A stretch of DNA of 64,000 nucleotides. Source: an uncultured Roseivirga sp. (lineage in GTDB: Bacteria; Bacteroidota; Bacteroidia; Cytophagales; Cyclobacteriaceae). Positions 32,101 to 58,581 of this stretch are shown here, piece after piece (positions within the stretch are counted from its first letter, which is position 1; the number at the start of each line of letters is the position of its first letter). The stretch covers positions 53,108-117,107 of the forward strand of contig NZ_CAXBBV010000009.1 in assembly GCF_963973945.1 (NCBI RefSeq), read 5' to 3'. The notes beneath the pieces are model-generated. The model worked only from the letters and a program-made list of their open reading frames with translations. It did not search any database and was not told the origin of the DNA. Position numbers and translations under genes: made by a program.

Positions 32101-32151
32101 TTAATTAGTATATTGGTTATTAGTTATAAGTGTTGAAAATCAATCAATTTC

Positions 32152-41416: not shown

Positions 41417-41431
41417 GGTGTGTCTATTTTA

Positions 41432-41589
41432 CAATCCCCCAGCCCCCTTGGCCAAGGGGGAGGTGGTAACGATGTTGATTACTTTCAATACTACTTTCTC
41501 TTTTCTTTACCCTTATGGCTTCGGATTTTAACTAACCAATGCTGTCTATTCGAAGCCTTCCCCCTTTTTCAAAGGGGGCTAGGGGGATT
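41432..41589. repeat. ~158-bp REP-doublet unit, left copy
   Basis: CAATCCCCCAGCCCCCTTGGCCAAGGGGG...CCCCCTTTTTCAAAGGGGGCTAGGGGGATT, with internal hairpins and inverted termini. Confidence 0.9.
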
Positions 41590-41593
41590 ACGA

Positions 41594-41974
41594 TTACTCT
41601 ATCGCTTTATTCAATGTTTCTTCTGATAAATGGCCTTCAATCGTTCTAATTACATTTTTTAAGTCATATTTAACATCTACTTCCGCAATTCGAACAACTT
41701 TATATCCCAGCTCATTTAGTCTTAAGTCTCTTGTTCTATCCTGCTCTTGTTTGTCATCATGCGATCGGCCATCAAGTTCTATAATCAACCTTTCCTTTCT
41801 ACATATAAAATCAACAATGTAATTTTCGATTGCGAATTGTCTGTTAAACTGAAGTCCATAAAATCGTTTTGCCCTGAGCACATGAGCCCATAAGATGGCC
41901 TCACCGGGAGTTCCATGTTTTCGGAGCTCACGAGCCAATGGTTTTAGTTTCTTATTGTAACTGGACTTGTTCAT
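41594..41974 (-). CDS. DUF559-family (Vsr-like PD-(D/E)xK) endonuclease domain protein
   Basis: ARELRK..TPGEAILW...FNRQF.I..YIVDFIC....LIIELDGRSH...DR.RD..L..LGYKVVR. Confidence 0.93.
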   Translation of the reverse strand: MNKSSYNKKLKPLARELRKHGTPGEAILWAHVLRAKRFYGLQFNRQFAIENYIVDFICRKERLIIELDGRSHDDKQEQDRTRDLRLNELGYKVVRIAEVDVKYDLKNVIRTIEGHLSEETLNKAIE

Positions 41975-42017
41975 GTTATTTATTCAATCCTTAAACGCTT
42001 TTAAGTATTTATGAAAT

Positions 42018-42174
42018 CAATCCCCCAACCCCCTTGGCCAAGGGGGACGCGGTTACGATGCTGATTACTATCAATATTTCTTCACCTTTTCTTTATCCTT
42101 TTGGCTTCGGCTTTGATTAAACACGGCTGTCTATTCGGAACCTTCCCCCTTTCTTAAAGGGGGGCAGGGGGATT
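42018..42174. repeat. ~157-bp REP-doublet unit, right copy (direct repeat of 41432-41589)
   Basis: CAATCCCCCAACCCCCTTGGCCAAGGGGG...CCCCCTTTCTTAAAGGGGGGCAGGGGGATT. It aligns end to end with the left copy, roughly 80% identical by eye. Confidence 0.9.
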
Positions 42175-42263
42175 TTGTCTCGTCATGTCTCGCCTTAGTA
42201 TTGGTTTACATTTGCTTTTCAATCTTATGCAAATCAAAAGCTTGTCGAATATACAAACAAATG

Positions 42264-42369
42264 TTGCCGTCCGCTAGCGGACGGCAAAGTGCGATGGCGA
42301 CCAATTAGCAAGAGGTTGTTTGTGTTAATTTATTGATATATAGTTAATTAACTTTGGTATGACAGTTGG
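42264..42369 (+). promoter_or_regulatory. Candidate sigma-54 promoter: palindromic UAS, IHF-like site and -24/-12 box
   Basis: Perfect 24-bp palindrome TTGCCGTCCGCTAGCGGACGGCAA (42264-42287); TATCAATAAATTA on the minus strand (42338-42326) matches WATCAANNNNTTR; TGGTAT-N5-TTGG (42355-42369) has the -24/-12 spacing. Confidence 0.6.
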
Positions 42370-42432
42370 TTAACTGCTGACGTTATTTACCGATTAATTT
42401 TATCACTCTAGTTTTTAACCTAAATAGAATTC

Positions 42433-44805
42433 ATGTTATCATCCTTTTTTAGAATAGCTTTTCGATACCTGGTAAAGAACAAGCTTTACTCTGTTCTGAA
42501 TATATTCGGACTGACAGTGGGCTTGATCTGCTTTGTCATTCTAAGCCTATATGTAAGGGAGCAATTTGATAAGGATACGTATCACGCTCACTCAGAAGAG
42601 ATCTACAGGGTTCTAGTAGCCAGAGATGATACTACAGAAGTCGAACCCAATTGGGAAATAATGACGCAATTTCCCGTGGCCGAGTTGTTCAAAGAAGGTA
42701 TTCCAGAGGTGAAAAACACAGTGAGATTTGGCCAAACTTCTGAGTTACTTGTTGAAGCTGGTCAACGAAAATTTAAGATTCAGTCTCTTCATTTTGCTGA
42801 CCCTTCCTTATTCGATGTATTTGATTTTGATGTGCTAGCGCAGTCTAAACCACTAGATCAGCAAACTGTAAGTGAGCTCATAATAGTGAAGTCTGAGGCA
42901 GAAAAACTCTTCGACTCTCCATCAGGTGCCATTAGTCAAACCGTAAATTTGAACGGTTATGGAATGTTTAAGGTGATTGGGGTAATTGATGATCTTGGTC
43001 AAGAAACTCATATGGGTTTCAAGTACATTCTTCCCGTTGAGCAATCTGATAAGGCTTACGGAGAAGATGGGCGTTATCGAGACTGGGGGGTATTGTCTGG
43101 GTTTCCGCTCTATGTTCAGATTGAAGAAAACGCACAGGTTGAAGATATTGAGCATAAAGCTAAGACACTTCTTCAGCCTCATATTAAGAACATGAGTGTT
43201 CGTTTAGAGCCTGTGAGTGAAGTTTACTTCAGTAAACTATATTCATTTTTTAAGAAAACGGGCGATAAACAATTTATAAGGCTATACTTACTCGTTGGGC
43301 TTCTGATTCTATTTATTGCTTGTATTAACTACACCAACTTATCAACCGCCAGATACCTAAAAAGAGCCAAGGAGGTTGGTATAAGAAAGACAGTTGGCGG
43401 TTACAGAAGTCAGATTATCACCCAATTTTTTATTGAGTCCATTGCGCTTGCCTTTATAGCTGTGGTACTTTCAGTATGTTTTACTGAAATACTTCTGCCT
43501 TCATTTAATGCTTTTGCGGGGTCTTCCATATTTATTGATTACCAAAGCCCCTTTACCTACTTATTTATGGTATTGGCTGTTTTGGGCATTGGCGTTTTTG
43601 CAGGGCTTTATCCCGCTGTTTTCCTCAGCCGTTTTAGTGCTACCCAAATTTTATCGGGCAGTGTAACTAAAGGCAAATCAGGTCTGCTTTTCAGAAATAT
43701 ATTGGTGGTGGTTCAATTCTTTATTTGTATTGGTTTGTTTATTTCTACCAATGTTATCTATCAACAATTCAGGCATTTAAAGTCGTTAGACTTGGGATTT
43801 GATAAGGAACAAGTGATTATGATTCCATTGAATGACCAAGCGATCAAACAATCATACAAAGCTTTTAAAAGTGAACTGAGCTCAAATCCTTCTATTGAAT
43901 GGATGACAGGAGCAGGGCCAAAAGTGTTTGGCGGACAAGCTCAGTTTTATTTAGAAATTGATGGAAGTGAGGACGTTACGCCCATTTCCATCTTCCCTGT
44001 TGATGAGGACTTCTTTCAAAAATTTGACATAAAACTATTGGAAGGAAAGCTCTATCAGCCTGAATTAGGTAAGGAGGGGAATGATTTTCTAATCGTGAAT
44101 GAAGCCTTGGCGAAAGTGGGTGGATGGAAGATTGAAGATAAGATGGGTAAGAATGTGTTTAAACGTAATGTGGGCGTCCCAAATTTGGGTGGGGTAGTTG
44201 AAGACTTCGTGTTCTTTTCGGTGAAAGATGAAGTAACACCAGCGGCATATCTTTATAAACCCAACGATAATAATCTGGCCTATATAAAGGTAAAGCCTGA
44301 AAACATGGAAGCCACTATTGCTTCTATTCGAGCCACTTACGAAAAATTTGCCAACCTTTATCCTTTTGAATACTCCTTTTTGGATCAAGAGTATGCTGCC
44401 CAATATGCAAAGGAGCAGCGTTTGGCCAACATATTTACCACCTTTAGTGCCGTAGCCATTTTAATTGCATTGCTAGGTTTGTTTGGGCTTACAATATTCT
44501 TGGCTGAACAACGCTTGAAAGAATTCAGCATACGAAAAGTGCTTGGCGCTTCAAACATCCATTTGATTTGGTTAATGAACAGTGGCATCAGCCGCATGTT
44601 GCTGATCAGTACCGCATTTGTGATTCCTTTGGTCTATTATTTCCTTAAAGATTGGATCAACACATTTGCTTTTAGAATTAAGCTTGATTGGCCTCTTTTT
44701 GCATTGCCAGTGGTCTTGGTAATGCTTTTTGCTTGGCTTACTACACTTTATCAGTCGGTTAATTCGGCAAGAAAAAACCCAGTAGATTCATTACGCAACG
44801 AATAA
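42433..44805 (+). CDS. Duplicated FtsX/MacB-type ABC transporter permease (copy 1)
   Basis: Two MacB_PCD+FtsX halves, ACINYTNLSTARYLKRAKEVGIRK, RLKEFSIRKVLGA and a C-terminal NPVDSLRNE. Confidence 0.93.
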   Translation: MLSSFFRIAFRYLVKNKLYSVLNIFGLTVGLICFVILSLYVREQFDKDTYHAHSEEIYRVLVARDDTTEVEPNWEIMTQFPVAELFKEGIPEVKNTVRFGQTSELLVEAGQRKFKIQSLHFADPSLFDVFDFDVLAQSKPLDQQTVSELIIVKSEAEKLFDSPSGAISQTVNLNGYGMFKVIGVIDDLGQETHMGFKYILPVEQSDKAYGEDGRYRDWGVLSGFPLYVQIEENAQVEDIEHKAKTLLQPHIKNMSVRLEPVSEVYFSKLYSFFKKTGDKQFIRLYLLVGLLILFIACINYTNLSTARYLKRAKEVGIRKTVGGYRSQIITQFFIESIALAFIAVVLSVCFTEILLPSFNAFAGSSIFIDYQSPFTYLFMVLAVLGIGVFAGLYPAVFLSRFSATQILSGSVTKGKSGLLFRNILVVVQFFICIGLFISTNVIYQQFRHLKSLDLGFDKEQVIMIPLNDQAIKQSYKAFKSELSSNPSIEWMTGAGPKVFGGQAQFYLEIDGSEDVTPISIFPVDEDFFQKFDIKLLEGKLYQPELGKEGNDFLIVNEALAKVGGWKIEDKMGKNVFKRNVGVPNLGGVVEDFVFFSVKDEVTPAAYLYKPNDNNLAYIKVKPENMEATIASIRATYEKFANLYPFEYSFLDQEYAAQYAKEQRLANIFTTFSAVAILIALLGLFGLTIFLAEQRLKEFSIRKVLGASNIHLIWLMNSGISRMLLISTAFVIPLVYYFLKDWINTFAFRIKLDWPLFALPVVLVMLFAWLTTLYQSVNSARKNPVDSLRNE

Positions 44806-44830
44806 ACTCAATTATTAAAACAACAAGGTC

Positions 44831-47224
44831 ATGTTTAAAAACTATGTAAACATTGCAATAAGAAGCCTTAAAAGACAAAAGGCCTACTCACTGATCAACA
44901 TCTCAGGATTATCGGTGGGTATTATGGCATGTATTATCATTCTACTCTATGTAAGGAATGAGTCATCCTATGAGGGTTTTTACCCCGATTCTGATAAGAT
45001 TTATCGCGTTACCAGTAGTTATGAAACTTCTGGCAATGTTCAGAATATAGCAATTACCCCAACAAAGATCACTCAAGTTTCTTTGGAACATATTCCTGAA
45101 ACAGAAGAAGCAACTTTCATTTATGATTGGAGGGTAGGTAGAGAGTTTTTGATGAAGTACAAGGACAAAACCTTTACCGAAACTAAAATCTATTATGCCG
45201 ACACAAGCTACTTTAAGGTTTTTCAGTATGAATTTTTAGAAGGAGATGTTAAAACAGCTTTAAGAGAACCACAAACCTTAATAATGACCGAAGAGTCGGC
45301 CATTAAATATTTTGGAGGTGCCTCGGAAGCTTACGGTAAAATCATCAAAGCCAATAATTCTGATTTTAAAGTAACAGGAGTAGTAAAGAAACCAATAGGA
45401 AACACTTCGTTGGCTTTTGACATGATAATTTCAGTACAATCGATTTTTGGTCAAATTGATAATGAGCGATGGTTTCCTATGAACTATTACACCTATGTAA
45501 AGCTTGCAGATGAGGCTGCGGCAAAAAGTTATTTGACTAAACTGAATGATTATGTAACAAAGGATTTTGGTGATGCGATGGAGGCTGGAGGGTTTAAGCT
45601 TTCTTATGATATTCAGCCCCTAACCGAAATGCATTTTGATATAACAAAAGGAGCAGATTATCCTGAGAAAATATCAAGAGAGTTGCTGTATTCACTAGTG
45701 GCCATAGCTGTTTTCATTCTATTAATTGCCTGCATTAATTATATCAATTTGAGTACGGCAAAATCTGAAAAACGAGCCAAAGAAGTAGGCATTAGAAAGG
45801 TAATGGGAGCCCATAGAAGACAGCTAATTCTTCAATTTTATGGGGAGACGTTTATGGTTACTCTTCTATCTGTAGTAATTGGGGTGGTTTTAGCCGAACT
45901 GTCATTGCCATTCTTTAATCAAATGGCAGGTACTCAGCTTTCTATAAGTCTTCAAAACGATCCCAATTTGTTGCTCATCCTAGTAGCTTTTGTTTTGGTA
46001 GTAAGCTTTATTTCTGGCAGTTATCCAGCATCATTTCTTTCTTCATTTCAGCCAGTTAAGGTACTTAAAGGCACTTTTAGTGTTAAGGGTGGAAATATGT
46101 TTCGAAGAATATTGGTTACACTTCAATTTACGGTAAGCGTTTTCCTTATCACCGGTACTTTGGTGATTTTCTATCAACTAAGGTATGTTCAGAGTACAGA
46201 TATTGGTTATGATCAAGATCAGGTAGTTTATCTAAAACTTCCAGACCGTACAGCTAGAGACGCCTATAGATCACTGAAATCTCGATTTGAAACCATTACG
46301 GGAGTTGAGGAAGTAACAGGAAGTAATAATGAAATTTCTAATGTGCTTTCGGGCTGGGGCGCTATCATGGACGGACTTCCAGAAAACGTAACCATTTCGT
46401 TTAGAGGTATGTATGGCGATCAGGATTTTCTAGAAACTTTTGGTTTCAATCTATTGGCGGGTGAAGGCTTTAAAAATAAGTCTGATTGGGATTCAACAGT
46501 TTATTACCTGGTAAACAAAACTGGGGTTGAAAAGCTGGGAATAAGCCCTGAAGAAGCGGTGGGAAAACGCTTTGGAATAGATGAAGGTATGATGGGCTAT
46601 ATAGCAGGAGTAGTAGATGATTTTCATTTTACTAGTTTTCATACAGACATAGAGCCTTGGGCGGCTTACACTGGACCTCAAAACTTTAAGCAATTACTTT
46701 ATGCAAAGGTCAATATGTCTCGAATTGAATCAGTAAAAGCTGAAATGGGCAAGGTATGGACTGATCTTGTACCAGATAGACCATTTGAACTGAGGTATGT
46801 GGACGAAGCGGTAAAAGGATTGTATGAAAAGGATAAACAGCTTAGCCAGATCATTCTCACTTTCACAGTCCTCGCCATTGCAATAGGCTGTTTAGGTCTG
46901 TTTGGCTTGGCTTCTTACTTAGCTGAAAAACGCACCAAAGAGATTGGTATTAGAAAAGTGCTTGGGGCCGATGTTTCCAAAATCGTCATGATGCTCTCTA
47001 AAGAATATGTCCGAATTATTTTGATTTCTAACCTCATCGGTTGGCCGATTGCTTACATCGCTATGAGTCGTTGGTTGGAAGGCTTTGCCTATAGTATTGA
47101 CTTAAGTTGGTATTATTTCCTTGTTGCTGGTTTGATGACTGTTATGGTAGCGATGTTTACGGTGTCATATCAGTCTGTGAAGGCGGCATTTTCTAATCCA
47201 GTAGATTCTTTAAGGAATGAGTAA
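44831..47224 (+). CDS. Duplicated FtsX/MacB-type ABC transporter permease (copy 2)
   Basis: ACINYINLSTA..EKRAKEVGIRKVMGA, RTKEIGIRKVLGA and NPVDSLRNE. Confidence 0.94.
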   Translation: MFKNYVNIAIRSLKRQKAYSLINISGLSVGIMACIIILLYVRNESSYEGFYPDSDKIYRVTSSYETSGNVQNIAITPTKITQVSLEHIPETEEATFIYDWRVGREFLMKYKDKTFTETKIYYADTSYFKVFQYEFLEGDVKTALREPQTLIMTEESAIKYFGGASEAYGKIIKANNSDFKVTGVVKKPIGNTSLAFDMIISVQSIFGQIDNERWFPMNYYTYVKLADEAAAKSYLTKLNDYVTKDFGDAMEAGGFKLSYDIQPLTEMHFDITKGADYPEKISRELLYSLVAIAVFILLIACINYINLSTAKSEKRAKEVGIRKVMGAHRRQLILQFYGETFMVTLLSVVIGVVLAELSLPFFNQMAGTQLSISLQNDPNLLLILVAFVLVVSFISGSYPASFLSSFQPVKVLKGTFSVKGGNMFRRILVTLQFTVSVFLITGTLVIFYQLRYVQSTDIGYDQDQVVYLKLPDRTARDAYRSLKSRFETITGVEEVTGSNNEISNVLSGWGAIMDGLPENVTISFRGMYGDQDFLETFGFNLLAGEGFKNKSDWDSTVYYLVNKTGVEKLGISPEEAVGKRFGIDEGMMGYIAGVVDDFHFTSFHTDIEPWAAYTGPQNFKQLLYAKVNMSRIESVKAEMGKVWTDLVPDRPFELRYVDEAVKGLYEKDKQLSQIILTFTVLAIAIGCLGLFGLASYLAEKRTKEIGIRKVLGADVSKIVMMLSKEYVRIILISNLIGWPIAYIAMSRWLEGFAYSIDLSWYYFLVAGLMTVMVAMFTVSYQSVKAAFSNPVDSLRNE

Positions 47225-47387
47225 AGCAATGAGCTATTGAAGTAATGAATTAAGGAGAGAGGGGATTAATGAGATAGTGAAGGAATGAGACAAATAAATT
47301 AATGAAAGAAGGTGTGAAGAGGGAAGTGGATTTTCGTTTTCACCAATGACCAATGACCAATGACCAATGACCAATGAACTATAACTA
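47225..47387. repeat. Intergenic spacer: purine-rich ~8-mers, TTTCGTTTTCAC, then (CCAATGA)x5
   Basis: Five perfect CCAATGA units at 47343-47377. Confidence 0.85.
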
Positions 47388-49739
47388 TTGATGAGATATT
47401 TTAAAACCATATTCCGAAGCCTAAAGCGTGAAAAGGGCTTTACTCTAATTAACCTTTTGGGCCTAAGCATTGGAATGTTTTGTTTTTTGGTAACGGCTCT
47501 TTTTGTAAGAGATGAAGTGACTTATGATCGTTGGCATGAGAATGCTGATAATATCTACATGTCTACTTTGCAATTACAAAAGGAAGATGGTGAGCCTATT
47601 GACCTAAGAACCTCTCATGCCTTTATGAAAGCATTAGAAGCAGAAAGCCCTGGTGTATTAGAAACAGTGAATATTAGTGGTGCAACCTGGAGCGATTATC
47701 AAATTAATGATGAATGGATATCAGGTCGCAAGGTCTTTTATTCGTCTCCTGAATTCTTTAAGGTATTCGATTTTAGTTTGAAGTACGGCAATGAAGAATT
47801 GGCGTTGACAGACCCAAGTGAGGTAATTCTTTCTTCAGAAATGGCGGAATCCATTTTCCCTGGAGTAAACCCAGTGGGCGAAACGATCACTTTTATAAAC
47901 GCTGTGTATAAAGTAGCAGGAGTGCTCAACCCAATACCTAAAAATTCACATTTGCAATTTGATTTTGTAAAGGGAACAACTTACGATGGTTCTAGATATG
48001 AACCTACGGAACTAGATTGGTTAGCGGGATATGGCTATAGCTACTTTTTATTGAGAGAAGATTACAGTGCCGAAAAACTTTTAGCGGATGCCAAAGCAAT
48101 TCTGGCTAGAAATGGAATTACTAATGAAGCAAATGGTCTACAGTTTTTAAGGTTCTCAAATTTATACCTCGACAGTAAAACCGGACGCTATGATAATGAT
48201 AATCTTTTCGGGGGGCAGCGTAAGTATTTATACATCTTCTCCTTGGTAGGAGGGCTTATCCTTTTTGTTGCCTGCTTTAATTATATCAATCTTACTACGG
48301 CTCGTTCCATTTCAAAGGTAAAGCAAATGGGCATTAGAAAAATAATGGGCGCTAGTCGTAGCAAACTGGTGCTTTCCCAAATGGCTGAAACATTTTCTCT
48401 GGCCTTTTGTGCTTTAATCATTGCCCTAATTGGATTAGAATTATTACTGCCCTACACTCAGTCACTAATTGGTAAAACTTTGGAATTGAATTTTTCGGAA
48501 GCTCCTCAACTTTTATTCTTACCCATTTGCTTGCTTGTATTGGTGGTTTTGGTTTCAGGTATCTATCCAGCACTTACGCTTAGTTCTTTTAATATTTCAG
48601 GAGTATTAAGGGGGAACCTGCCTCAATCCAAAGTGGGAATGCTACGAAAATCATTGTTTGTTTTGCAGTTTACAATCTGCTCTGGTTTGCTCATGGCTGC
48701 TTTAAGTATACGAGGTCAGGCCAATTATTTAATAGAGTTGGATAAAGGATATAATGAAGAGAATATTATGTCCATACGCCTTAATCAAGAAGGGCAGAAA
48801 CTCGACTATCAGACTGTAAGGAATGCCCTTGAAGCAATTCCTCAAATTGAAAAAATAACATCGACACCCTTACCTGCTTTTCCTCCAGGACCACCCAGCA
48901 TGTTAAAACTCAACGGAATAATGGTGCCTTTAACTATTTATTCTGGAGCGGCCGACAGGGACTTTAACAACCTTTTCGAACTTGAGTTTTTAGAAGGGTC
49001 TGATTTCAGCGCTCTTCCAATATCTCAATTGGACAGCGTAGTAATCATCAATGAAACTGCAAAGAAGAAGTTAGGCTTGAATCCTGCCATCGGTTCAAAA
49101 ATGCCTAGCGGAAAAACTGTAGTTGGTGTAGTTAAAGATTTTCATTTTAGTTCTGCTAAGTATGTCATAGAGCCTGCGGAGCTTTACTATAAACCAAAGG
49201 ATTTTCGCAACATACAATTCAGTTATCGTGCAGGAGATAAAGATGCAGTTATAGCGCACGTAACCTTGGCACTCTCTAAACTAGGTGTAACGGGAACGCC
49301 CAGTATTCAAGAAATCAAAGGTTATTTTGAATCAAGCTATAAAAAGGAAGCACAATTGGTTACCATTTTCGATGTGCTCACCACAATGGTCATACTAGTG
49401 GCCTTCTTAGGGCTTTTTGCCTTATCATCTTTTGAGAATAAACTTAGAGAAAAGGAAATAGGAATTAGAAAGGTGCTGGGTGCTACATATCTCCATTTGA
49501 TACGCACCCTGAACAAGCGATTCACTTGGCTGATTGCTTTGGCCATGATGATTTCTATACCGCTTACCTATTATGGAATTCAAAAATGGATTATAGACTT
49601 TCCATATAGGTTGGAGAACCTAAGTCCATTCTTCTCTCAAGCGATAATCATGGTTGGAATTTTAGCAATGACAGTGCTTGGTTTACATAGCTATTTCAGC
49701 GCTCAAAAGAACCCTGTGGATGTGTTGAGGAATGAATGA
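47388..49739 (+). CDS. Duplicated FtsX/MacB-type ABC transporter permease (copy 3)
   Basis: ACFNYINLTTARS, REKEIGIRKVLGA and NPVDVLRNE. Start is TTG 47388 or ATG 47391. Confidence 0.92.
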   Translation: MMRYFKTIFRSLKREKGFTLINLLGLSIGMFCFLVTALFVRDEVTYDRWHENADNIYMSTLQLQKEDGEPIDLRTSHAFMKALEAESPGVLETVNISGATWSDYQINDEWISGRKVFYSSPEFFKVFDFSLKYGNEELALTDPSEVILSSEMAESIFPGVNPVGETITFINAVYKVAGVLNPIPKNSHLQFDFVKGTTYDGSRYEPTELDWLAGYGYSYFLLREDYSAEKLLADAKAILARNGITNEANGLQFLRFSNLYLDSKTGRYDNDNLFGGQRKYLYIFSLVGGLILFVACFNYINLTTARSISKVKQMGIRKIMGASRSKLVLSQMAETFSLAFCALIIALIGLELLLPYTQSLIGKTLELNFSEAPQLLFLPICLLVLVVLVSGIYPALTLSSFNISGVLRGNLPQSKVGMLRKSLFVLQFTICSGLLMAALSIRGQANYLIELDKGYNEENIMSIRLNQEGQKLDYQTVRNALEAIPQIEKITSTPLPAFPPGPPSMLKLNGIMVPLTIYSGAADRDFNNLFELEFLEGSDFSALPISQLDSVVIINETAKKKLGLNPAIGSKMPSGKTVVGVVKDFHFSSAKYVIEPAELYYKPKDFRNIQFSYRAGDKDAVIAHVTLALSKLGVTGTPSIQEIKGYFESSYKKEAQLVTIFDVLTTMVILVAFLGLFALSSFENKLREKEIGIRKVLGATYLHLIRTLNKRFTWLIALAMMISIPLTYYGIQKWIIDFPYRLENLSPFFSQAIIMVGILAMTVLGLHSYFSAQKNPVDVLRNE

Positions 49740-49865
49740 ATGAAAGAAGGAGTGAAGGGATTAATGAAATAATGAGGAAGTGAAACAAGGAGGAAGACCG
49801 AAGCGGGTTCTCGTTTTCACCAATGACAAATGACCAATGACTAATTAACTAATAACCAAAGGGCT
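49740..49865. repeat. Intergenic spacer related to 47225-47387
   Basis: TCGTTTTCACCAATGACAAATGACCAATGACTAATTAACTAATAACC at 49811-49857. Confidence 0.85.
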
Positions 49866-52235
49866 ATGTTAAAAAACTATATCATTACCACGCTAAGAGG
49901 AATAAAGAGAAACAAGGTCTTTACATTGATTAACCTGACAGGTCTTTCAGTGGCCATGGCCTGTTTTATTTTGGTAGGACTCTATGTGCGATATGAGCTT
50001 TCCTATGATCAGTTTCATGAGGATGTAGAAGATATACACATTGTAAAACTGAAGTACGTAAAGAGTTTTGGAGGGTCATATAACCAATTTTTACCAGCCG
50101 TTTTTGCAGACATAATTGAAGAGGGAACGTCTGGTTTAAAAGGGGTGACAACCACTTTGTCGGGAGCAGGAAATATGTATGTGGTAAAGAATGGTGATGA
50201 CTACATTCAAGAGAAATATTATACGCTTCAGAATTCATTTTTTGATCTCTTCTCATTCCCTTTTCTCTATGGAAATCAAGCGAATGCTTTAACCAGTCCT
50301 AAAGCGGTGGTTGTTTCGTCAGAAATGGCAATCAAATATTTCAATAAAGAAAATGCAATTGGTGAAACGCTTTCTGTAGATGGTAAAGGAGACTTTAAAG
50401 TGACAGGTGTCCTAAAAGACTTTCCTAAAAATTCTCAGTTCCAACCTCATTTTTCTTTCTCTTTGAACGATATGGAGAACTTAGATTCATGGGGATACAA
50501 CACTTTTTTCATTTACATAAAAACAGAACCTAATGCAGATTTAGGCCAGATCAGAAATAGAATAGGAAGCTTATATGATGCCAACAAGCCAGAAGATGTC
50601 ATATATGGAGGTTCAGGTGCGGAGTTAGGCTCTTTTGCAGACTCCTATTGGGCACAAACGGGGAGTGGGGCAGCGCTAAATAACCGTGATAGAGGATTGG
50701 GAGCCAATAAAGATATTATTTATCTGTGCTCAGGCTTGGCCATTCTTCTACTGTTTATTGCCTTGGCCAATTATGTAAATATGGCGACTGCTAAAGCCAT
50801 GGAAAGGGCCAAAGAAGTAGGGATTCGTAAAGTGAATGGGGCTACTCAAAATCAACTGATTAAACAGTTTTTGGGTGAAACGCTCTTTTTCGCCTTGCTC
50901 TGTTTGGTGGTGGCCGTTATTATGGTAGAAATCCTTTTGCCTTCGGTATCCCAAATTATGGGCATCAGCCTGAAGATGGACTATGAAGACCTAACCATTT
51001 TGGGCTACTTATTGGCCTATGCATTGTTTTGTGGTCTTTTGGCTGGAATTTATCCAGCGGTGTTATTGTCGCGCTTCAACCCAGTTAAAGCCCTAAAAGG
51101 TCAGAAACAGCAAGGTCATTCTCGTTTTTCTCATCGCAGTGTTTTGCTCTTTTTTCAGTTCACTATCTCTGCCTTTATGATCATCGTGCTTTTGGTGGCC
51201 AATAAGCAAATCAATCATTACATCAACTTCGACCTTGGCTTTAATAAAGAAAGGGTGGTCAGTATTCGTATGACGAAGGAAATGCTTGAAAGACCTCATG
51301 TGTTTATGCAGGAGGTAAAGAATATTAGCGGTGTAGAAGGAGTAACCGTGGGACCACTTCCTGAAGGAGCATTTGGTTTTAGTACTTTGGAATATGAAGG
51401 CAAGACAATGAAGTATGCGCCAAAGGTTGAAACCGATGAGAACTTTATTTCAATGCTTGAAATTCCCTTATTGGCAGGAAGGAATTTTGATCCAGAAATT
51501 CCATCAGATACTGAAAACTCGATCATCATTAATGAAATGCTAGCAAAAACGCTTGGATTGGAGAATCCAGTAGGGGCAACGGTGCTCTCTGATGGGAGTA
51601 CCAAGAGAATAATTGGTTTAATAAAGGATTTCCACATCACAAGTGCCAGGCATCAAGTAAGAGAGTTGATGCTAGCACCTATGCTCAGCAGCGGAAGAGT
51701 AAATAACCTACTGATCAAGGTGAACGCTCAGAACATGGCCAGCACCTTAGGGCAGATTGATGCCATTTGGGATCAGTTCGATTATAAGGATTCGTATCAA
51801 TACCAGTTTTTAGATGATGCCTATGAGGCCAAGTTAAGTAGGTTGCAAAATCTTACTTTAATCATTAACGGAGTTACCACCGCCATTGTGGTCATTTCCC
51901 TCTTTGGGCTATTCTCTTTGGTTGCCTTTCAAACTTCACAACGTATCAAGGAAATTAGCATTCGAAAAGTACTTGGCGCTACCGTGAATAACATCCTCTT
52001 TATTTTAGGAAAACCTTATGCTTGGTTGATTCTTTTATCATCTCTGGTGTCCATACCATTGGCCTATTACTTTATGGGCAACGCACTCAATGGATATCCT
52101 AACCGGATTGATTTGGATGCATCGTTTGGAGTCATCACAGTGATCAGTATTCTGAGTTTTTCAGCTCTGGTATTACTGAGTAGGGCGCTTTCAACTATTA
52201 GGACGAATCCAGTAGATATTTTGAGGAACGAATAG
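49866..52235 (+). CDS. Duplicated FtsX/MacB-type ABC transporter permease (copy 4)
   Basis: ALANYVNMATA..MERAKEVGIRK, RIKEISIRKVLGA and NPVDILRNE. Confidence 0.93.
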   Translation: MLKNYIITTLRGIKRNKVFTLINLTGLSVAMACFILVGLYVRYELSYDQFHEDVEDIHIVKLKYVKSFGGSYNQFLPAVFADIIEEGTSGLKGVTTTLSGAGNMYVVKNGDDYIQEKYYTLQNSFFDLFSFPFLYGNQANALTSPKAVVVSSEMAIKYFNKENAIGETLSVDGKGDFKVTGVLKDFPKNSQFQPHFSFSLNDMENLDSWGYNTFFIYIKTEPNADLGQIRNRIGSLYDANKPEDVIYGGSGAELGSFADSYWAQTGSGAALNNRDRGLGANKDIIYLCSGLAILLLFIALANYVNMATAKAMERAKEVGIRKVNGATQNQLIKQFLGETLFFALLCLVVAVIMVEILLPSVSQIMGISLKMDYEDLTILGYLLAYALFCGLLAGIYPAVLLSRFNPVKALKGQKQQGHSRFSHRSVLLFFQFTISAFMIIVLLVANKQINHYINFDLGFNKERVVSIRMTKEMLERPHVFMQEVKNISGVEGVTVGPLPEGAFGFSTLEYEGKTMKYAPKVETDENFISMLEIPLLAGRNFDPEIPSDTENSIIINEMLAKTLGLENPVGATVLSDGSTKRIIGLIKDFHITSARHQVRELMLAPMLSSGRVNNLLIKVNAQNMASTLGQIDAIWDQFDYKDSYQYQFLDDAYEAKLSRLQNLTLIINGVTTAIVVISLFGLFSLVAFQTSQRIKEISIRKVLGATVNNILFILGKPYAWLILLSSLVSIPLAYYFMGNALNGYPNRIDLDASFGVITVISILSFSALVLLSRALSTIRTNPVDILRNE

Positions 52236-52318
52236 GTCGGTCAATAGTCAATGGACATTGGTCAATAGTTTGAGTTGGCTGATTCCCAATGACCAATTAA
52301 CTAATAAACCAACAAGCT
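52236..52318. repeat. Intergenic spacer with inverted heptamers
   Basis: Left part GGTCAAT AGTCAAT GGACATT GGTCAAT (reverse-oriented heptamers); right part CCAATGACCAATTAACTAATAAACCAA. Confidence 0.75.
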
Positions 52319-54664
52319 ATGCTACGAAACTACATCAAAGTCGCTTTTAGAAACCTGAGAAGAAACAAGCTTTATGCAAGCCTAAACATATTAGGTTTGA
52401 GTATAGGTTTAGGTTCATTCTTTATCATCTACCTTTTTCTTCAGAATGAATTGGCATATGACCAGTTTCATGAAAAGAAGGACAGGATTTATAGGGTGGT
52501 AACAATTGCTGAAAGCGATTTTGGGGTAGAAAAGGAGGCAGGAATGAGCTATGCTTTTTCTCCTGCCCTTATAGGAAATATTCCTGGGATTGAGGCATTT
52601 AGTAGAGTTATACAAAAAAATATTCTTTTCTCATTTAATGAGGGGGATGAAAACATTGACGGTACGGAGACCTTGACAGTAGACCAAGGTTTTTTATATT
52701 TTTTCACCATATACTTTATTCACGGATCGGCTCAAACATCACTTCAATCACCTTATTCACTTATTATTGACGAGGCGACCGCATTAAAACATTACGGAAC
52801 AACGGATGTATTAGGCAAAATCGTAAAATATAATAAAGTCAATTATACCATTGATGCTGTATTTCGTGATCTTCCCAAAAGCTCATCAATCAAAGGCAAT
52901 ATCATAGTACTGAATGAAACTATAAATGCACGTTATGGTGAGGGCAATTGGAGCTGGAGATTAAATAATTTACAGAACTATATACTCTTAAATGATAATA
53001 CCACACTAAGCGAGTTGGAAAATAAGCTCACAGATCTTTACGTATCAAATAACAAGTGGGCTGCGGGTAAAAAGCTTAGTTTACAACCTATTGCTGATGT
53101 TCATTATTCATTAGATGTGAGGGATGAGGTGAAGGAAAAGACTGACCGTCAGTACGTTTCAATTTTTGCATTTGTAGCCATTTTCATTTTAGCTAGCTCC
53201 ATTTTTAACTACATCAGTTTATCAGTCTCCCAATCTATTGAAAGAGCAAAAGAGATCGGGGTTCGAAAAGTGGCAGGCGCAAGCAGCAAAGAATTGCGCA
53301 AACAATTTATAATCGAATCATTATTGCATGTCCTTATCAGCTTTGTGCTCTCCATGATTTTAGTGGAATTACTTATTCCTCAACTAGAGGATTTAGTAGA
53401 AAGGAATTTAGGTATCAGCGTTTTAACACAGCCTGTTTTGCTACTCAAAGGAATTGGGTTCTCTTTGGTTATTGCGTTGCTCTGTTCGCTTTACCCAACC
53501 TCTTTGAGTACCAGACTAAAAGTGGTGAATATCTTTAAAAAAGGCAAAGGTAGCTTTTCGTCTCAACGATTAATCAACTCCATAAGTGTTTTTCAAATTG
53601 TTGTATTCATAGTACTTATTTGTGTTTCTGTTACAGCCAACCGGCAAATGGGTTTTATGCGAAACGAAAACCTAGGTTTTGATAAAGATCATCAATTGGT
53701 ATTGGAAAACATGCCTTGGAGAACTAGAGAGGTTCACAAGAGTGAGTTGCTAAAACTGCCAGGTGTAATATCGGTCAGTAGTGGTAGCCAGCTCCCTAAT
53801 GACGTTAGATCTTCGATGGGATTTCCAGAGCTTGATTTTCAATTTAGTTTCTTCGAAATAGACCATGACTTTATTGAGACTATGGGTATGACTCTTTTGA
53901 GCGGTCGAGATTTTGTGCTCGAAGATACTGACTCGGCTAAATTGGTTTTGATAAATTCAACTGCCGCAAAGAATTTAGGTTATGATAAAGCAAGTGCTGT
54001 GGGTAAAACCATGGGGTCGGGCTCTTCTACGCATAGGATCATTGGCGTAGTGAGTGATTTTCACTTCGCCTCCAAAAAGCAAATCATTGAGCCAGTGATT
54101 TTCAAACAGGTGATTGAAGGCTCGCCAAGCAATCAAGTTTTAGTTAAACTAGATGGGGTTAATTGGGCAGCTACTACAAAAAATGTATTGAAATACTACG
54201 AAGACATACCTAATCTCTATAAGTACTCTTACTTCTTTTTAGAAGACCAAATCAACTCCCAATACAAACAAGAAAATGTGATGATTACCATGTTAAACAC
54301 TTTTACGGTAATTGCAGCTTTGGTGGCTTTTATTGGGCTCTTTGGCATTGCTGGTTATTCAGTGAAAAGGAGATTGAAGGAAATGGGGATTCGAAAAGTG
54401 CTGGGTGCTGGCTTCTTCAGTATTCAAAAGGTGTTGAATGTTTCAAGTGTATGGAAACTACTGGTTGCTGTGGCTATTGCTGTGCCTGTAGTGGTGTATT
54501 GGATGAACAATTGGCTGAGTTCTTTTGCTTATCGCATTGAAATGCCTGTCTTCCTAATCTTCGGAGCCATTGCCGTTGCCTCAATCGTAATTTTCATTAC
54601 TGTTTCCATTCACAGTATAAAAGCCTATTTGATTAACCCAGTGGAGATATTGAAAGACGAATGA
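52319..54664 (+). CDS. Duplicated FtsX/MacB-type ABC transporter permease (copy 5)
   Basis: IFNYISLSVSQSIERAKEIGVRK, RLKEMGIRKVLGA and NPVEILKDE. Confidence 0.93.
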   Translation: MLRNYIKVAFRNLRRNKLYASLNILGLSIGLGSFFIIYLFLQNELAYDQFHEKKDRIYRVVTIAESDFGVEKEAGMSYAFSPALIGNIPGIEAFSRVIQKNILFSFNEGDENIDGTETLTVDQGFLYFFTIYFIHGSAQTSLQSPYSLIIDEATALKHYGTTDVLGKIVKYNKVNYTIDAVFRDLPKSSSIKGNIIVLNETINARYGEGNWSWRLNNLQNYILLNDNTTLSELENKLTDLYVSNNKWAAGKKLSLQPIADVHYSLDVRDEVKEKTDRQYVSIFAFVAIFILASSIFNYISLSVSQSIERAKEIGVRKVAGASSKELRKQFIIESLLHVLISFVLSMILVELLIPQLEDLVERNLGISVLTQPVLLLKGIGFSLVIALLCSLYPTSLSTRLKVVNIFKKGKGSFSSQRLINSISVFQIVVFIVLICVSVTANRQMGFMRNENLGFDKDHQLVLENMPWRTREVHKSELLKLPGVISVSSGSQLPNDVRSSMGFPELDFQFSFFEIDHDFIETMGMTLLSGRDFVLEDTDSAKLVLINSTAAKNLGYDKASAVGKTMGSGSSTHRIIGVVSDFHFASKKQIIEPVIFKQVIEGSPSNQVLVKLDGVNWAATTKNVLKYYEDIPNLYKYSYFFLEDQINSQYKQENVMITMLNTFTVIAALVAFIGLFGIAGYSVKRRLKEMGIRKVLGAGFFSIQKVLNVSSVWKLLVAVAIAVPVVVYWMNNWLSSFAYRIEMPVFLIFGAIAVASIVIFITVSIHSIKAYLINPVEILKDE

Positions 54665-54779
54665 AGCAATGAATTAAGGGATTAATGAAGGAGTGAAAGA
54701 AGGTTGGCAGACCGAAGAAGGAAGTCAAAAGCTGGTTTCGTTTTCACTAATGACCAATTAACTAATAAACCAATACGCT
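54665..54779. repeat. Intergenic spacer related to the other permease spacers
   Basis: TTTCGTTTTCACTAATGACCAATTAACTAATAAACCAA at 54736-54773. Confidence 0.85.
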
Positions 54780-57133
54780 ATGTTACGGAATTATATAAAA
54801 TCAGCTTTTACTAACCTAAAACGAAATACGGGTTACACACTGCTTATGATCTTTTCATGGCTTTGGGCATGTATTGCTTTGTGATGGCTGGGCTCTATGT
54901 ACGCTATGAATATTCCAGAAATCTAAATCACGCCAATGCGGATAGGGTGTATAGGGTGATGCTAGATTATGAGCGATATCATCAATATATATTAGCGGAT
55001 ATGGTAGCAGAAATGCCGAATGTAAGTCCAGATATTGAGGCTGTTAACGTGATTAATTCCTATAACGGAGAAGTTTACTTAAGTAAGGATGATCAATCTT
55101 TCATTAGACAAGCAAAGGCTTTTTATACTGACCCCAATGTGTTCGATGTGTTTAGCTTTCCTTTGAAATACGGAAACCCTGAAAATGCTTTGGCTGGTAC
55201 AGGGAAAATAGTGATTTCAAGCTTTTTGTCAGAAAGTCTATTTCCAAATAAAAACCCAATTGGCAAGGAAATTTTGGTTCATGAAAAAGGAACATTCTTA
55301 ATTAGCGGAGTGCTTGAAGAAGTGTCTGAATTATCAATATTAAATCCTGGGATCTTCTTTTCAATGGATCAGTTTGTGGCGGACACTAAAGCCAGTGGTA
55401 ATACAGATGCAATGCTAACGCATGTTTTGTTAAAAGAAGGAGCTGACCTTAATCGTTTTAAAGTGAGCTTGCTTAGGATTGCCCAAACTATGGCGCCTAC
55501 GGAAGGATTGAAAGGCATATATACTGAAAAACTAGCAGACGCATACTGGGGTAATTCAATCTATGATTATGGTGCGCAGTACTACTCCCTTTTTGGGGCT
55601 TCCAAAAAAATGATAAAGACTGTACTGTACGTGAGCATTGGCGTATTGCTTTGTGCCTTTTTGGGTTATGTAGCCATTGCATTGAGTTTATCCTTAAAAA
55701 GGGCGAAAGAGGTAGGGATTAGAAAGGTAAACGGTGCAAATGTTAGCACCGTTCGAAGTCAATTCTTAGTTGAATCAGTGGTTTATGCGGCTATATCTTT
55801 ATTGCTAACGGTTGTGGCTTTGGAAATTTCTGGAAAGTGGGTTTCTGACTTGCTTCAAGTGCCTATTAGTTTGAGGATGGATCAACCTGAAGTGATTATA
55901 TTCTTAATCACTTTTACACTTATTACAGGTCTTATTGCTGGCCTATATCCTGCATTCATAGTTTCTAAATTGAACCCTGTAAAAGTACTTTCTGGTTTTT
56001 CAAGCCCAACGGGTTCTGGCTTTGTTATGAAACGGGTTTTGCTTACAGCGCAATTTGTAATTACCATCTGCTTGGTTTTCGGAGTGTATGTACTTAAGCT
56101 TCAGGTTTCCCAAATGGCTCACTTCGATAATGGCTATTCGATTGAAAATATCCTGTCTTTCGACAATACAAATCCAGAAATGAAGAAGAATAGCACAGTG
56201 CTTTTAGAGTCGTTGCGCTCAGTTTCTGGAGTTGTAGAAGTAGCCAAAGGGCCATTTCCTCTTAATTTCAATGGGTTTTCTAAAGTGAAGATACAAATGG
56301 GGGATAGCCTTATTCAAGATAATCCTTCTAGAATATTTGTATCGGAAAACTTCTTTGAAACTATGGGGATTAAGCTTCTAGAAGGAGGTTCTTTCAATGG
56401 AGTATCAGATGAAAACTCTTGCTTAATTAACGAGAGTTTTGCGGCTCAACATGGCTTAGTAAATCCATTAGGAATGACCTTGAATGTTGATGGGAAGCCA
56501 AGAACAGTGATTGGCGTAGTGAGTAATTATGCGGATTGGGGTGTAAGTAATCCAACTCCGATGAGCCATGTATTTCTGCCTGCTGTTGATACCAAGTTCC
56601 ATAGTTATTTATTGAAGATTTCTGACAATAATCAGGCTAGTGTAATGGCGCAGTTGGAAACGGTGTGGAAGAAGTTTGACCCAGTTAAAGACGCACGTAT
56701 TTTTACTTTAAGGGATAGAGTTAATAATTCCGTTCAGAAGGTATCTAAAATCTCAACGCTCTTTAGCATTTTGGCAGGAGTGGTGCTATTGCTTTCTTTT
56801 ATGAACCTATTCGGTATGGCCATTATGTTTGCTAATTCCAAGATGAAAGCAGTTAGTATTCGTAAAATTCTAGGGGCAAGTGTTCCTGAATTACTTGGAA
56901 GGTTGTCACTTCCTTTTCTTTATAGCCTTATTATCGCTTTACTGATTGCTTTACCTATTGGCTATTATTTGATGGAACAATACCTGCAAGACTATGCGGT
57001 AAGGATAAGCCTGAATGCGGGTCAAGGTCTTATCGCAGGAATCTTTATGATTGTACTACTATTTGTGGTTATCGGCTTTAAAATGCTCCAATTCAGTAAA
57101 ACCAATCCCATTGAAGTGTTGAGGAAGGAGTAG
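54780..57133 (+). pseudogene. Duplicated FtsX/MacB-type permease (copy 6) with a 1-bp frameshift near 54856
   Basis: ATG 54780 reads MLRNYIKSAFTNLKRNTGYTLLMIFS, homologous to the N-termini of copies 4 and 5, then goes out of frame. The rest continues from 54857 (MALG...NPIEVLRKE). Confidence 0.85.
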
Positions 57134-57202
57134 GGAAGCAGGAAGTCCGGTGACGGGAGCCCGCTCTTAACTAATAACCAGTACACCAATAACTCAATAG
57201 GG

Positions 57203-57240
57203 CATAAAAAAAGCGACTATCACTGGTCGCTTTTTTTATG
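57203..57240. terminator. Bidirectional intrinsic terminator
   Basis: CATAAAAAAAGCGAC-N8-GTCGCTTTTTTTATG, a perfect 15-bp stem between the permease array and the convergent amidohydrolase operon. Confidence 0.88.
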
Positions 57241-57255
57241 GTATTAGAAATAAGC

Positions 57256-58581
57256 TTACTTCTTAATGATTTTGATAGCAGGGTCGTTCTTCTTAACACC
57301 TGGAGTTCTATTTAAGAATTCATCATACAATCTGATTTGCTGAGAAGTCATTGGTACTTTGTAGCCGTCAATGAACAAGTCAGTAATCTTAGTAGCGGTT
57401 TCAAAAGGATCACCAGTAGAAATAAACACGTTTGCTTTCTTACCTACTTCAATAGATCCAATTTGATCAGAAACACCTAGGATCTGAGCTGCATTGATAG
57501 TGATTGCTTTTAATGCTTCTTCTTTACCCATTCCGTAAGAAGCCGCAAAGCCTGCATGGTAAGGTAAGTTTCTCACATTTTCAGTATCACCAGTACGCAA
57601 GGCTACTTTAACACCTGCCGCACTCATAATTCCTGGGTTTGCATAAGCTGCATCATATTTATCTGATCCACGAGTAGGGATAGCTTGAATAGGCCCAGCA
57701 ATTACAGGAAGCTTAGATTTAGCAATTTCTTCAGCAACTCTCCAGCCTTCAGAAACACCAGTTAAAACCACTTTCTTATAACCTCTAGTTTTCACCCAGT
57801 CAATAGCAGCAAGGATATCCTTTGCAGCGTTTGCTTCGATGAAAAGTTGCATTTCGCCTTTAACCACAGGTACTAATGCTTCGATTTCAGGGTAGTTTCT
57901 TACCTCACCTGAGTTTTCGATTTTAGCATAAAGCTCTGCTTTGTCCCAAGCATCGTTTACTGTTTTTAATGCTCTTTCAGTAGCCTTAGCTTGCTCTTCA
58001 GGAGATCTTCTTCTGAAACGTCCTCCACCAGCGGTAGAAGGGAAGTTCATAATGATCCCTTTTGCACCAGCAAACATTTGGTCTGGAGTGTAACCGAACA
58101 AGTTGATTGCAGCAGCCGTACCTGGTAAAAACCCTCCGCTAGGAGTAGTCCATACTGTAGTAACACCACTTACACGGGTTACAGGAATTACAGCCGAATT
58201 AGGGTTTACTGCTGTTAGTGCTTGCATTTGAGGTGTTAAAGCTCCGCTTTCGCTAAAATCTTGAGACACATCAATACTACCTATTTCAGATAAACCCACT
58301 TTAGTTCCTGAATCAATCATACCTGGGTAAATCTCTTTACCCTTACAGTCAATTACTTCCGCATCATCTGGAATATTAACATTGGCACCAACTGCTTCGA
58401 TAATACCGTTGTTGATGATCAAAGTACCGTTTTCAATAATACCGTTGGTTACAGTATAAATTTTGGCATTTGTTAGAGCAAATTTGCCCGCCCGTGCCTT
58501 CATTACTTGGTCGTCTTCTTGCCCGAAAGAAAGAAGTGGAACCATTAAAGCAATAATGAGTATTTGGAATATTCTTTTCAT
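57256..58581 (-). CDS. Amidohydrolase-superfamily protein, secreted; metal-binding HxH absent
   Basis: ALTNAKIYTV, NGIIEAVG, IYPGMIDSGT (in place of IDxHxH) and GSIEVGKKAN. Signal peptide. Confidence 0.85.
   Translation of the reverse strand: MKRIFQILIIALMVPLLSFGQEDDQVMKARAGKFALTNAKIYTVTNGIIENGTLIINNGIIEAVGANVNIPDDAEVIDCKGKEIYPGMIDSGTKVGLSEIGSIDVSQDFSESGALTPQMQALTAVNPNSAVIPVTRVSGVTTVWTTPSGGFLPGTAAAINLFGYTPDQMFAGAKGIIMNFPSTAGGGRFRRRSPEEQAKATERALKTVNDAWDKAELYAKIENSGEVRNYPEIEALVPVVKGEMQLFIEANAAKDILAAIDWVKTRGYKKVVLTGVSEGWRVAEEIAKSKLPVIAGPIQAIPTRGSDKYDAAYANPGIMSAAGVKVALRTGDTENVRNLPYHAGFAASYGMGKEEALKAITINAAQILGVSDQIGSIEVGKKANVFISTGDPFETATKITDLFIDGYKVPMTSQQIRLYDEFLNRTPGVKKNDPAIKIIKK

Follow-up and report, generated by a model that had tools for sequence, protein, structure and literature searches.

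Six permease genes in tandem lie within a 64,000-nucleotide (nt) stretch of DNA from an uncultured Roseivirga (the window; positions 53108-117107 of contig C9). The 4.46-Mb source genome has 26 contigs and 39% G+C, and its nearest named relatives are Roseivirga species (Cytophagales). The sequence was matched only by marine metagenome DNA runs. Hence, the source is a metagenome-assembled genome (MAG). We have analysed the spacers between the six genes, most of which consist of short tandemly repeated words. Our preferred interpretation, to which we assign a probability of about 0.6, is that these spacers are mosaics of word arrays inside one long σ54-dependent permease operon, and that the operon has been reshuffled by ordinary homologous exchange without a dedicated cassette system.

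The permease array and its spacers

The six open reading frames (ORFs) are co-oriented and encode proteins of 758-797 amino acids (aa). A Pfam scan placed MacB_PCD and FtsX domains in each. At 23-32% mutual protein identity, they are old paralogues. The genes and spacers are listed below; orthogroup letters refer to the tree described in the next section.

42433-44805, plus strand: permease 1 (orthogroup A), MacB_PCD and FtsX domains
44806-44830, plus strand: spacer 1/2, 25 nt, A-rich, without repeat words
44831-47224, plus strand: permease 2 (orthogroup B), MacB_PCD and FtsX domains
47225-47312, plus strand: spacer 2/3, left module; purine-rich and C-poor, degenerate 8-nt words nnnAATGA from the stop codon on
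47313-47343, plus strand: spacer 2/3, middle module; purine words, then the array-specific core TCGTTTTCAC (47334-47343); weak local hairpin
47343-47377, plus strand: spacer 2/3, right module; five CCAATGA words in perfect tandem (100% matches)
47391-49739, plus strand: permease 3 (orthogroup C), MacB_PCD and FtsX domains
49740-49865, plus strand: spacer 3/4, type I; purine-rich words, GGAAGACCGAAG words, core (49811-49820), three CCAATGA-type words, leader AATTAACTAATAACCAAAGGGCT
49866-52235, plus strand: permease 4 (orthogroup D), MacB_PCD and FtsX domains
52236-52318, plus strand: spacer 4/5, type II; gene-less hairpin of words with left arm GGTCAATAGTCAATGGACATTGGTCAATAG, 16-nt loop and right arm CCAATGACCAATTAACTAATAAACCAA
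52319-54664, plus strand: permease 5 (orthogroup E), MacB_PCD and FtsX domains; its orthologues are recombinant mosaics
54665-54779, plus strand: spacer 5/6, type I; purine-rich words, GACCGAAGAAGGAAGTC words, core (54738-54747), CTAATGA CCAATTA words, leader AACTAATAAACCAATACGCT
54780-57133, plus strand: permease 6 (orthogroup F), frame broken by a 1-nt deletion next to 54857
57134-57202, plus strand: type III trailer behind permease 6; GGAAGCAGGAAGTC words followed by TTAACTAATAACCAGTACACCAATAACTCAATAG words, no downstream gene

A first-pass annotation of the window had described a purine-rich left part in spacers 2/3, 3/4 and 5/6, followed by a shared core and (C/T)AATGA. We found the same arrangement, with TCGTTTTCACYAATGA at 47334, 49811 and 54738. 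Shuffled sequences gave 0.15 expected matches, compared with these three, which are the only matches in the whole genome. The common ending ascribed to spacers 3/4, 4/5 and 5/6 was also recovered. All three finish with AATTAACTAATAA(A)CCAA-NNN-GCTATG, and the first part of this leader, TTAACTAATAA, recurs at 57167 after the last gene. The annotated counts of CCAATGA (5, 3, 1 and 1 for successive spacers) hold exactly for spacers 2/3 (five exact copies) and 4/5 (one). For the other two, they include mismatched copies. Spacer 3/4 has two exact copies and one with a single mismatch; spacer 5/6 has no exact copy, only the 1-mismatch form CTAATGA.

The inverted heptamer reported on the left side of spacer 4/5 is present. 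Positions 52252-52261 and 52286-52295 are 90% complementary, with a folding z of -2.2, and TTGGTCA occurs verbatim in this spacer. Spacer 1/2 has none of the words, as had been stated, and this junction (A|B) measures 22-26 nt in all relatives and is always wordless. The spacers have common blocks of 25-31 nt that are 96-100% identical. They are therefore, as the annotation held, far more alike than the genes that they separate (23-32% protein identity). Words in the array spacers stop 3-25 nt short of the ATG. Coding potential was considered and rejected by inspection: TGA and TAA show a periodicity of 8, and every frame is soon closed.

The features that flank the array, and that bear on its transcription, are as follows.

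38695-40059, minus strand: histidine kinase gene, adjoining the array upstream
40040-41416, minus strand: gene for a σ54 activator response regulator, adjoining the array upstream
42355-42369, plus strand: σ54-type promoter, TGGTAT-N5-TTGG, read from sequence, ahead of permease 1
57203-57240, no strand assigned: bidirectional terminator hairpin, CATAAAAAAAGCGAC / GTCGCTTTTTTTATG, perfect 15-bp stem with A and T runs

None of the spacers contains a terminator-like site, and σ70-like sites are not in excess in them. On these two grounds we rejected internal promoters and terminators. The Bacteroidota -33/-7 motif (TTTG / TAnnTTTG) was not seen in the spacers by eye. Given the σ54-type box before the first gene, terminator-free spacers and a hairpin after the array, the whole array is probably one σ54-dependent operon in which the spacers would be intercistronic.

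A perfect palindrome, TTGCCGTCCGCTAGCGGACGGCAA, is found at 42264-42287, upstream of the σ54-type box and permease 1. R. echinicomitans has the same layout of palindrome and box before its permease 1 orthologue (L002:2394-2571). A DUF559 (Vsr-like nuclease) gene on the minus strand (41594-41974) sits between the σ54 regulator gene and the permease promoter. It is bracketed by two direct repeats of ~150 nt (41432-42174), each of which contains CCCCCTTGGCCAAGGGGG palindromes. Further upstream in the window, a degenerate TAGTTAT array of 4.6 copies (32098-32131) lies between ORFs 31276-32100 (plus strand) and 32362-33597 (minus strand).

Permease 6 is frameshifted. Its ATG at 54780 starts MLRNYIKSAF; the open frame in the window runs from an ATG at 54857 and lacks the first 26 codons. 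This second ATG is created by the deletion itself. An extra T follows 54857 (TCATTGG, not TCATGG) in contigs of relatives from three metagenome runs (X4, X7 and X8). The source sample matches the window sequence. In all, the source genome has ~58 permease paralogues, including other tandem arrays, whose spacers are only 15-90 nt.

Turnover of genes and spacers among Roseivirga species

We fetched the orthologous arrays of six relatives and read all of their spacers. Nine further Roseivirga arrays were located via gene B orthologues. The long spacers fall into three types, with one short junction in addition. Type I proceeds from the stop codon through a C-poor purine tract of nnnAATGA 8-nt words to 7-nt words (GGAAGAC, CGAAGAC, GGAAGTC or AGAAGTG, with 14-nt indels between copies). 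The core TTTTCGTTTTCAC follows, then one to five CCAATGA words, then TAACTAA/TAAACCA-type words and a few nt before the ATG. Type II is a two-armed hairpin of inverted TCAATGG/CCAATGA words. Type III has a G+C-rich segment and AACTAAT-type words in place of the core and the CCAATGA words. The trailer position, type III in the window, holds a type II spacer in R. ehrenbergii.

Of 31 Roseivirga genomes, eight carry the core motif TTTTCGTTTTCACYAATGA. Seven of these assemblies are contiguous, and in each of them every copy maps to one locus and one strand, mostly at intervals of ~2.5 kb or multiples thereof; the remaining assembly is too fragmented for such a statement. Among the spacer motifs, only the core is specific to the array. 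The link between motifs and permeases that the first-pass annotation had drawn is thus half retained. The core is confined to the array, and rearrangements map to its junction zones, but the heptamers and purine-rich tracts occur genome-wide and are not permease-specific (24 perfect intergenic heptamer arrays; see below).

Spacers in more distant Roseivirga arrays are mostly 3-60 nt, and the B-C gap of one relative is only 2 nt. Long spacers in genome G030 and in R. spongicola are made of other words, namely hairpins of GTTCAnA words, a loop and TnTGAAC words. Hence, long word spacers are lineage-specific. They are derived, having arisen within particular Roseivirga lineages, each with its own word set that fills most junctions. 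Such lineage-specific sets favour invasion of the array with subsequent spread from junction to junction, and speak against a regulatory leader of ancient origin. The GTTCAnA/TnTGAAC hairpin spacers are at L010 (G030:C4) 10386-15417 and L008 2609-9991. Three successive junctions of G030 are nearly identical, and the first bases shown of the downstream genes (ATGATTAAG) are likewise identical.

A maximum-likelihood tree of 43 permeases gave well-supported orthogroups, from which gene orders were read. The window and R. ehrenbergii share the order ABCDEF. The order is ABGCDEF' in R. seohaensis and HABE'CGDEE' in R. echinicomitans. One MAG has BC'EE'CF and another has ABCF. The differing orders indicate that whole permease genes have been gained, lost and reordered between species.

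The spacers themselves are composite. Their left part tracks the upstream gene, and their last 15-30 nt track the downstream gene. For example, the left part after gene B is alike whichever gene comes next, and the last ~20 nt ahead of gene C (..AACCATAACGACTG) are alike whichever gene precedes. The switch of partners is located in the shared AAGGTTGGAAGnCCGAAGAC part. The D|E spacer differs in type between species: R. seohaensis has type I there and R. ehrenbergii type III, and the window and R. echinicomitans share type II. Furthermore, R. seohaensis has a D|E and an E|F' spacer that are near-identical over ~90 nt, though D and E are distant paralogues. Taken together, the three types at one junction and the near-identical pair indicate that spacer modules have been copied and replaced independently of the genes.

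Exchange also extends into the genes. In R. ehrenbergii, the spacer before gene E, and the first ~150 nt of that gene, are nearest the E' type. The next 1.2 kb are 90-95% identical to R. echinicomitans E, and later segments of the gene are nearest other E genes. Exchange tracts therefore run into conserved gene ends, and breakpoints are not limited to spacers. The annotation had proposed that recombination or gene conversion at the spacers shuffles whole genes, and had suggested comparing relatives for gain, loss and reordering. All three were seen, together with composite and swapped spacers. The joins, however, fall in a zone comprising the spacer and the adjoining gene ends, rather than in spacers only.

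Word arrays lengthen or shorten by slippage, 7 or 14 nt at a time. Metagenome contigs of close strains have three rather than five CCAATGA words at 47343 (a 14-nt deletion), and a contig of one close strain has one more CCAATGA at 52285 in spacer 4/5. The heptamer copy-number variation foreseen in the first-pass annotation is therefore real. Across orthologous spacers, CCAATGA copies number 1-5, and the middle part varies by 14-nt indels. Whole-gene joints in metagenome contigs (e.g. 47293 to 49834) were not counted as deletions; their short sides lie on repeated motifs, and the content in between is unclear.

Proposed homologous exchange and competing explanations

In the scheme that we favour, the spacers combine 8-nt nnnAATGA words, 7-nt GGAAGAC-type words, and 7-nt CCAATGA and TAACTAA-type words that reach up to the start codon. 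Most simply, the spacers would be gene-less copies of modules that form the arms of four-helix-bundle genes (see below). Shared modules and conserved gene termini would supply patches of homology for unequal homologous recombination and gene conversion, and the junction zone that they form would be the place of exchange. Cycles of unequal crossing-over could then duplicate, remove and reorder permeases (birth-and-death) with no site-specific machinery. No recombinase was found among the scanned neighbours, and type-I spacers are free of palindromes. Hence, ordinary homologous exchange at the junction zone fits the pattern better than a cassette system. The spacers mark this reshuffling of the array and probably help it.

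As for their persistence, Bacteroidota start translation without Shine-Dalgarno pairing, and the modules may be retained as tolerated or useful unstructured A-rich leaders for such starts. The most economical reading is that they are tolerated, perhaps mildly useful, leaders of this kind that evolve as slippage-prone and copy-prone simple-sequence elements. A specific protein partner for the words is possible.

Several points weigh against this interpretation. Operon structure, any role at the RNA level and leader function are predictions from DNA sequence. Similarly, the recombination mechanism is read back from end states, and differential loss from a larger ancestral array could account for part of the differences in gene order. 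Exchange tracts that start inside genes leave room for the spacers to be passengers, and not the substrate, of junction-zone recombination. The core TTTTCGTTTTCAC forms only a weak hairpin (mean z = -0.9) and has no role in the scheme. The link between words and four-helix-bundle genes comes from one genome, eight genes and lenient matching. Finally, the high conservation of orthologous spacers described below could signal a specific function outside the scheme.

A tentative alternative is that the spacers are selected RNA elements and owe their likeness to purifying selection. They could be platforms for a single-strand RNA-binding protein (S1, cold-shock, RRM or similar) or unstructured leaders that set translation. 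Orthologous spacers indeed match or exceed the flanking genes in conservation. The D|E spacer is 96% identical to its R. echinicomitans orthologue, compared with 85% and 80% for the flanking genes, and the E|F spacer is 88% identical, compared with 78% and 90%. Hence, some constraint, or recent exchange, must act on the spacers. Word polarity is fixed relative to the genes, and the words abut the start codon. For repeats of the same class, translational regulation has been proposed (MacGregor 2015, PMC4679880).

Folding analysis is also compatible with an unstructured element. Full type-I spacers fold less stably than shuffled sequences (z mostly positive), and they contain no inverted repeat. 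RNAalifold assigned -1.5 kcal/mol to 15 type-I cores, with zero compensatory pairs and no covariation. The middle part of types I and III can form a weak mini-hairpin (mean z = -0.9), whose register shifts between copies. An Rfam scan of 41400-57400 at E <= 1 returned nothing relevant. We therefore rejected conserved RNA structure in the spacers, bar the mini-hairpin, given the worse-than-shuffled folding and the lack of covariation.

Conversely, most other Roseivirga arrays of the same genes have wordless spacers of 3-60 nt; A|B is always ~25 nt, and B|C is 2 nt in one relative. Hence, long spacers are dispensable for expression. Three unrelated spacer types occupy D|E in three species, word sets vary by lineage, and copy number varies freely. 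None of these would be expected of selected RNA elements, and we regard homologous reshuffling of word-array spacers as the better account.

A second alternative starts from four-helix-bundle genes. The first-pass annotation had stated that 7-mer tracts often flank such genes in Bacteroidota, and this is right for the source genome. The genome has eight PF05635 four-helix-bundle genes, each between same-strand genes. Compared with 398 control genes, 6/8 have inverted flanks that rank at about the 95th percentile or higher, and array words occur in the flanks of 5/8, versus 67/400 controls. The only other CCAATGA array of the genome flanks the four-helix-bundle gene C12:39958-40323. That flank aligns over ~60 nt with the right half of type I, with T-rich sequence before the words and TTACTGATTAAC words after; the opposite flank is an inverted copy. 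Gene C2:7698-8051 is bracketed by inverted CGAAGAC/CGAAGTC arrays, and C12:31127-31486 is surrounded by AATGA octamer tracts and their complement. By this comparison, the spacer words are the arm words of four-helix-bundle genes in the source genome.

The spacers might then be relics, or empty or preferred landing sites, of hairpin cassettes that once carried a PF05635 gene, in the manner of 23S rRNA intervening sequences. We consider this doubtful. All three word families of the spacers serve as arms of four-helix-bundle genes, the latter sit with inverted flanks between same-strand genes, and spacer 4/5 forms a full hairpin with both arms but no gene. However, the idea of scars or landing sites, raised in the annotation, is an inference, and several facts weigh against it. 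Across 15 arrays, neighbouring permease genes are at most 263 nt apart, less than a gene of ~110-130 aa requires, and none of these junctions has room for a four-helix-bundle or GxxExxY gene. Inverted arrays of one word on both sides are present in spacer 4/5; types I and III have the weak mini-hairpin only. Type-I words run direct, not inverted, and the whole spacer forms no hairpin. None of the eight four-helix-bundle genes adjoins any of the ~58 permease paralogues, and gene-less arrays outnumber four-helix-bundle genes by at least 3 to 1.

An analogy to REPIN-RAYT suggests a further, rather unlikely, relationship. Word arrays and four-helix-bundle genes might form one system, with a gene-bearing master for each word family and gene-less satellites at operon junctions. 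The permease spacers could then be satellites of masters C12:39958-40323 (CCAATGA/TAACTnA), C12:31127-31486 (AATGA octamers) and C2:7698-8051 (CGAAGAC), and each four-helix-bundle protein would be specific for its own word, in DNA or in RNA. If true, the unexplained heptamer repeats (STRR, TAACTGA) would gain a partner, and the homogenisation of array junctions would be explained.

The source genome has a single GxxExxY/PDDEXK_3 gene (PF13366; C4:167137-167520), with the inverted repeats GATCAGAATTA and TAATTCTGATC as its flanks. The genes on either side share its strand and encode 621 and 900 aa.

The cassette-like array of the first-pass annotation, taken as an integron-like system with spacers as the sites of a site-specific recombinase, is close to refuted: a spacer follows every gene, the last included, as attC follows each cassette, and whole-gene presence and order differ between species, but type-I spacers have no conserved imperfect palindrome and no attC-like site, there are three or more unrelated spacer types, breakpoints are diffuse and reach into genes, and the words occur genome-wide in unrelated operons. 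Neither integrase nor recombinase is encoded by the Pfam-scanned flanking ORFs, ORFs further out in the window not having been scanned. The scanned flanks comprise the σ54 response regulator, the histidine kinase, the DUF559 gene, a dehydrogenase and a kinase on one side, and three amidohydrolases on the other.

The spacer words as genome-wide heptamer repeats

Heptamer direct repeats have been known in Cyanobacteria for more than 30 years. TTGGTCA is reportedly the unit of STRR2 (Mazel et al. 1990), one of the cyanobacterial short tandemly repeated repetitive (STRR) sequences. CCAATGA is a rotation of the reverse complement of this heptamer, a correspondence that the annotation had given correctly. 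Repeats of this kind have been known since 2015 in Beggiatoaceae and Bacteroidetes (MacGregor 2015, Front Microbiol, PMC4679880). The same work describes TAACTGA repeats in Beggiatoaceae, Cyanobacteria and five Bacteroidetes. These are forward, just upstream of start codons and mixed with other heptamers; translational regulation was suggested, and their function is unexplained.

We searched the source genome for heptamer arrays with Tandem Repeats Finder and an exact scan, retaining perfect arrays of at least 20 nt; gene calls were approximate and ORF-based. All 24 arrays found are intergenic, and 11 are at contig ends. TAACTGA accounts for eight arrays, TATTGAC for seven, and CCAATGA, AATGACA and CTGATCC for two each, with a few others. 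Seven of the eight TAACTGA arrays are in forward orientation, and those on C2, C3 and C18 stop 4 nt before start codons. On C3, one heptamer array lies ahead of the leading gene in a tandem set of eight permeases. Purine-rich tracts were harder to map: a strict regular expression, nhmmer and a composition scan each suffered from excessive stringency or noise. Scanning for motif clusters yielded 13 loci, compared with four in a reversed-sequence null. The tracts are rare genome-wide, and several are behind permease genes or beside a four-helix-bundle gene. One AATGA-word tract comes after another permease at C7:208947-209140, and its pyrimidine-rich inverted copy lies ~40 nt further on. The two form a long imperfect hairpin between convergent genes.

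By their sequence, the permease spacers belong to the intergenic heptamer direct-repeat class (STRR / TAACTGA), which is abundant in the source genome. The class is already known; what is new is a composite of word families reiterated through one array. Like the TAACTGA repeats (PMC4679880), the spacers have tandem 7-nt intergenic words, mostly forward, a few nt before a start codon, with mixed heptamers and long arrays, and the source genome itself holds the eight perfect TAACTGA arrays, several at contig ends. Unlike in that study, which did not include Roseivirga, the word families are fused in fixed composite spacers, including an 8-nt purine-rich family and an array-only non-repeat core, and the composite recurs from junction to junction along a single array of paralogues.

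GGGAATC/GGGGATT heptamer repeats occur in Xanthomonas and Nostoc, and a quadruplex explanation has been offered for GGGAATC (Rehm et al. 2015, PMC4692102). These and the STRR repeats are likewise non-coding heptamer tandems of variable copy number. They differ in phylum, and the permease-spacer arrays are short (1-5 copies) and lie inside composite modules. Our words are not G-rich; hence, the quadruplex explanation is inapplicable.

In Coxiella burnetii, the ORF carried by 23S rRNA intervening sequences is an S23p / four-helix-bundle gene (PMC4990558). The four-helix-bundle genes of the source genome resemble these in lying between inverted arms inside transcription units, and their arms use the permease-spacer words. 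Unlike the intervening sequences, the permease spacers are gene-less and are in a protein-coding operon rather than rRNA, and only spacer 4/5 is a two-armed hairpin. REP/BIME and REPIN-RAYT elements are also short repeats at intra-operon junctions that may affect mRNA stability, that are recombination substrates and that have many gene-less and few gene-bearing copies. Conversely, type-I spacers are non-palindromic, their tandem words are not a fixed palindrome, and no RAYT-like transposase is involved. Folding, covariation and Rfam analyses revealed no stable conserved stem-loop, as typifies REP/BIME, in the spacers. Whole-gene gain, loss and duplication, mosaic genes, and exchange at conserved ends and junctions are shared with paralogue arrays that evolve by unequal crossing-over (birth-and-death). 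Unlike in such arrays, the junctions here carry lineage-specific repeat modules that are far more alike than the genes and are themselves swapped.

The array offers a compact natural experiment, in which the same genes in sister species have no word spacers, one word set or another. Copy-number variation between strains, and modules swapped between identical gene pairs, lend themselves to defined constructs for effects on translation, mRNA stability and recombination in Bacteroidota. The junction modules accompany rapid turnover of a large transporter family (~58 paralogues), and the words common to spacers and four-helix-bundle arms are a lead to a protein partner.

Eleven contig ends of the source genome, on C2, C3, C11, C12, C15, C16, C17, C18 and C22, are within perfect heptamer arrays of at least 54 nt (TAACTGA, TATTGAC, AATGACA or CTGATCC). 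Hence, the longest arrays break the assembly, and matching ends suggest which contigs join. The long arrays at the ends of C3, C15, C16 and C17 share a central motif, GGGAACTCAATTTCCCGAAAAAAGTT, between a purine-rich tract of reverse-complement words and the heptamer array. These ends look like a dispersed family of composite elements, distinct from the type-I permease spacer.

Genes at C3:428612-431708 and C18:1-673 resemble trpG, trpD, trpC and trpF, judged by eye from translations. A four-helix-bundle gene is just ahead of the first, a TGACTAT x4.6 array separates the second from the third, and the last is preceded by a long array of TAACTGA.

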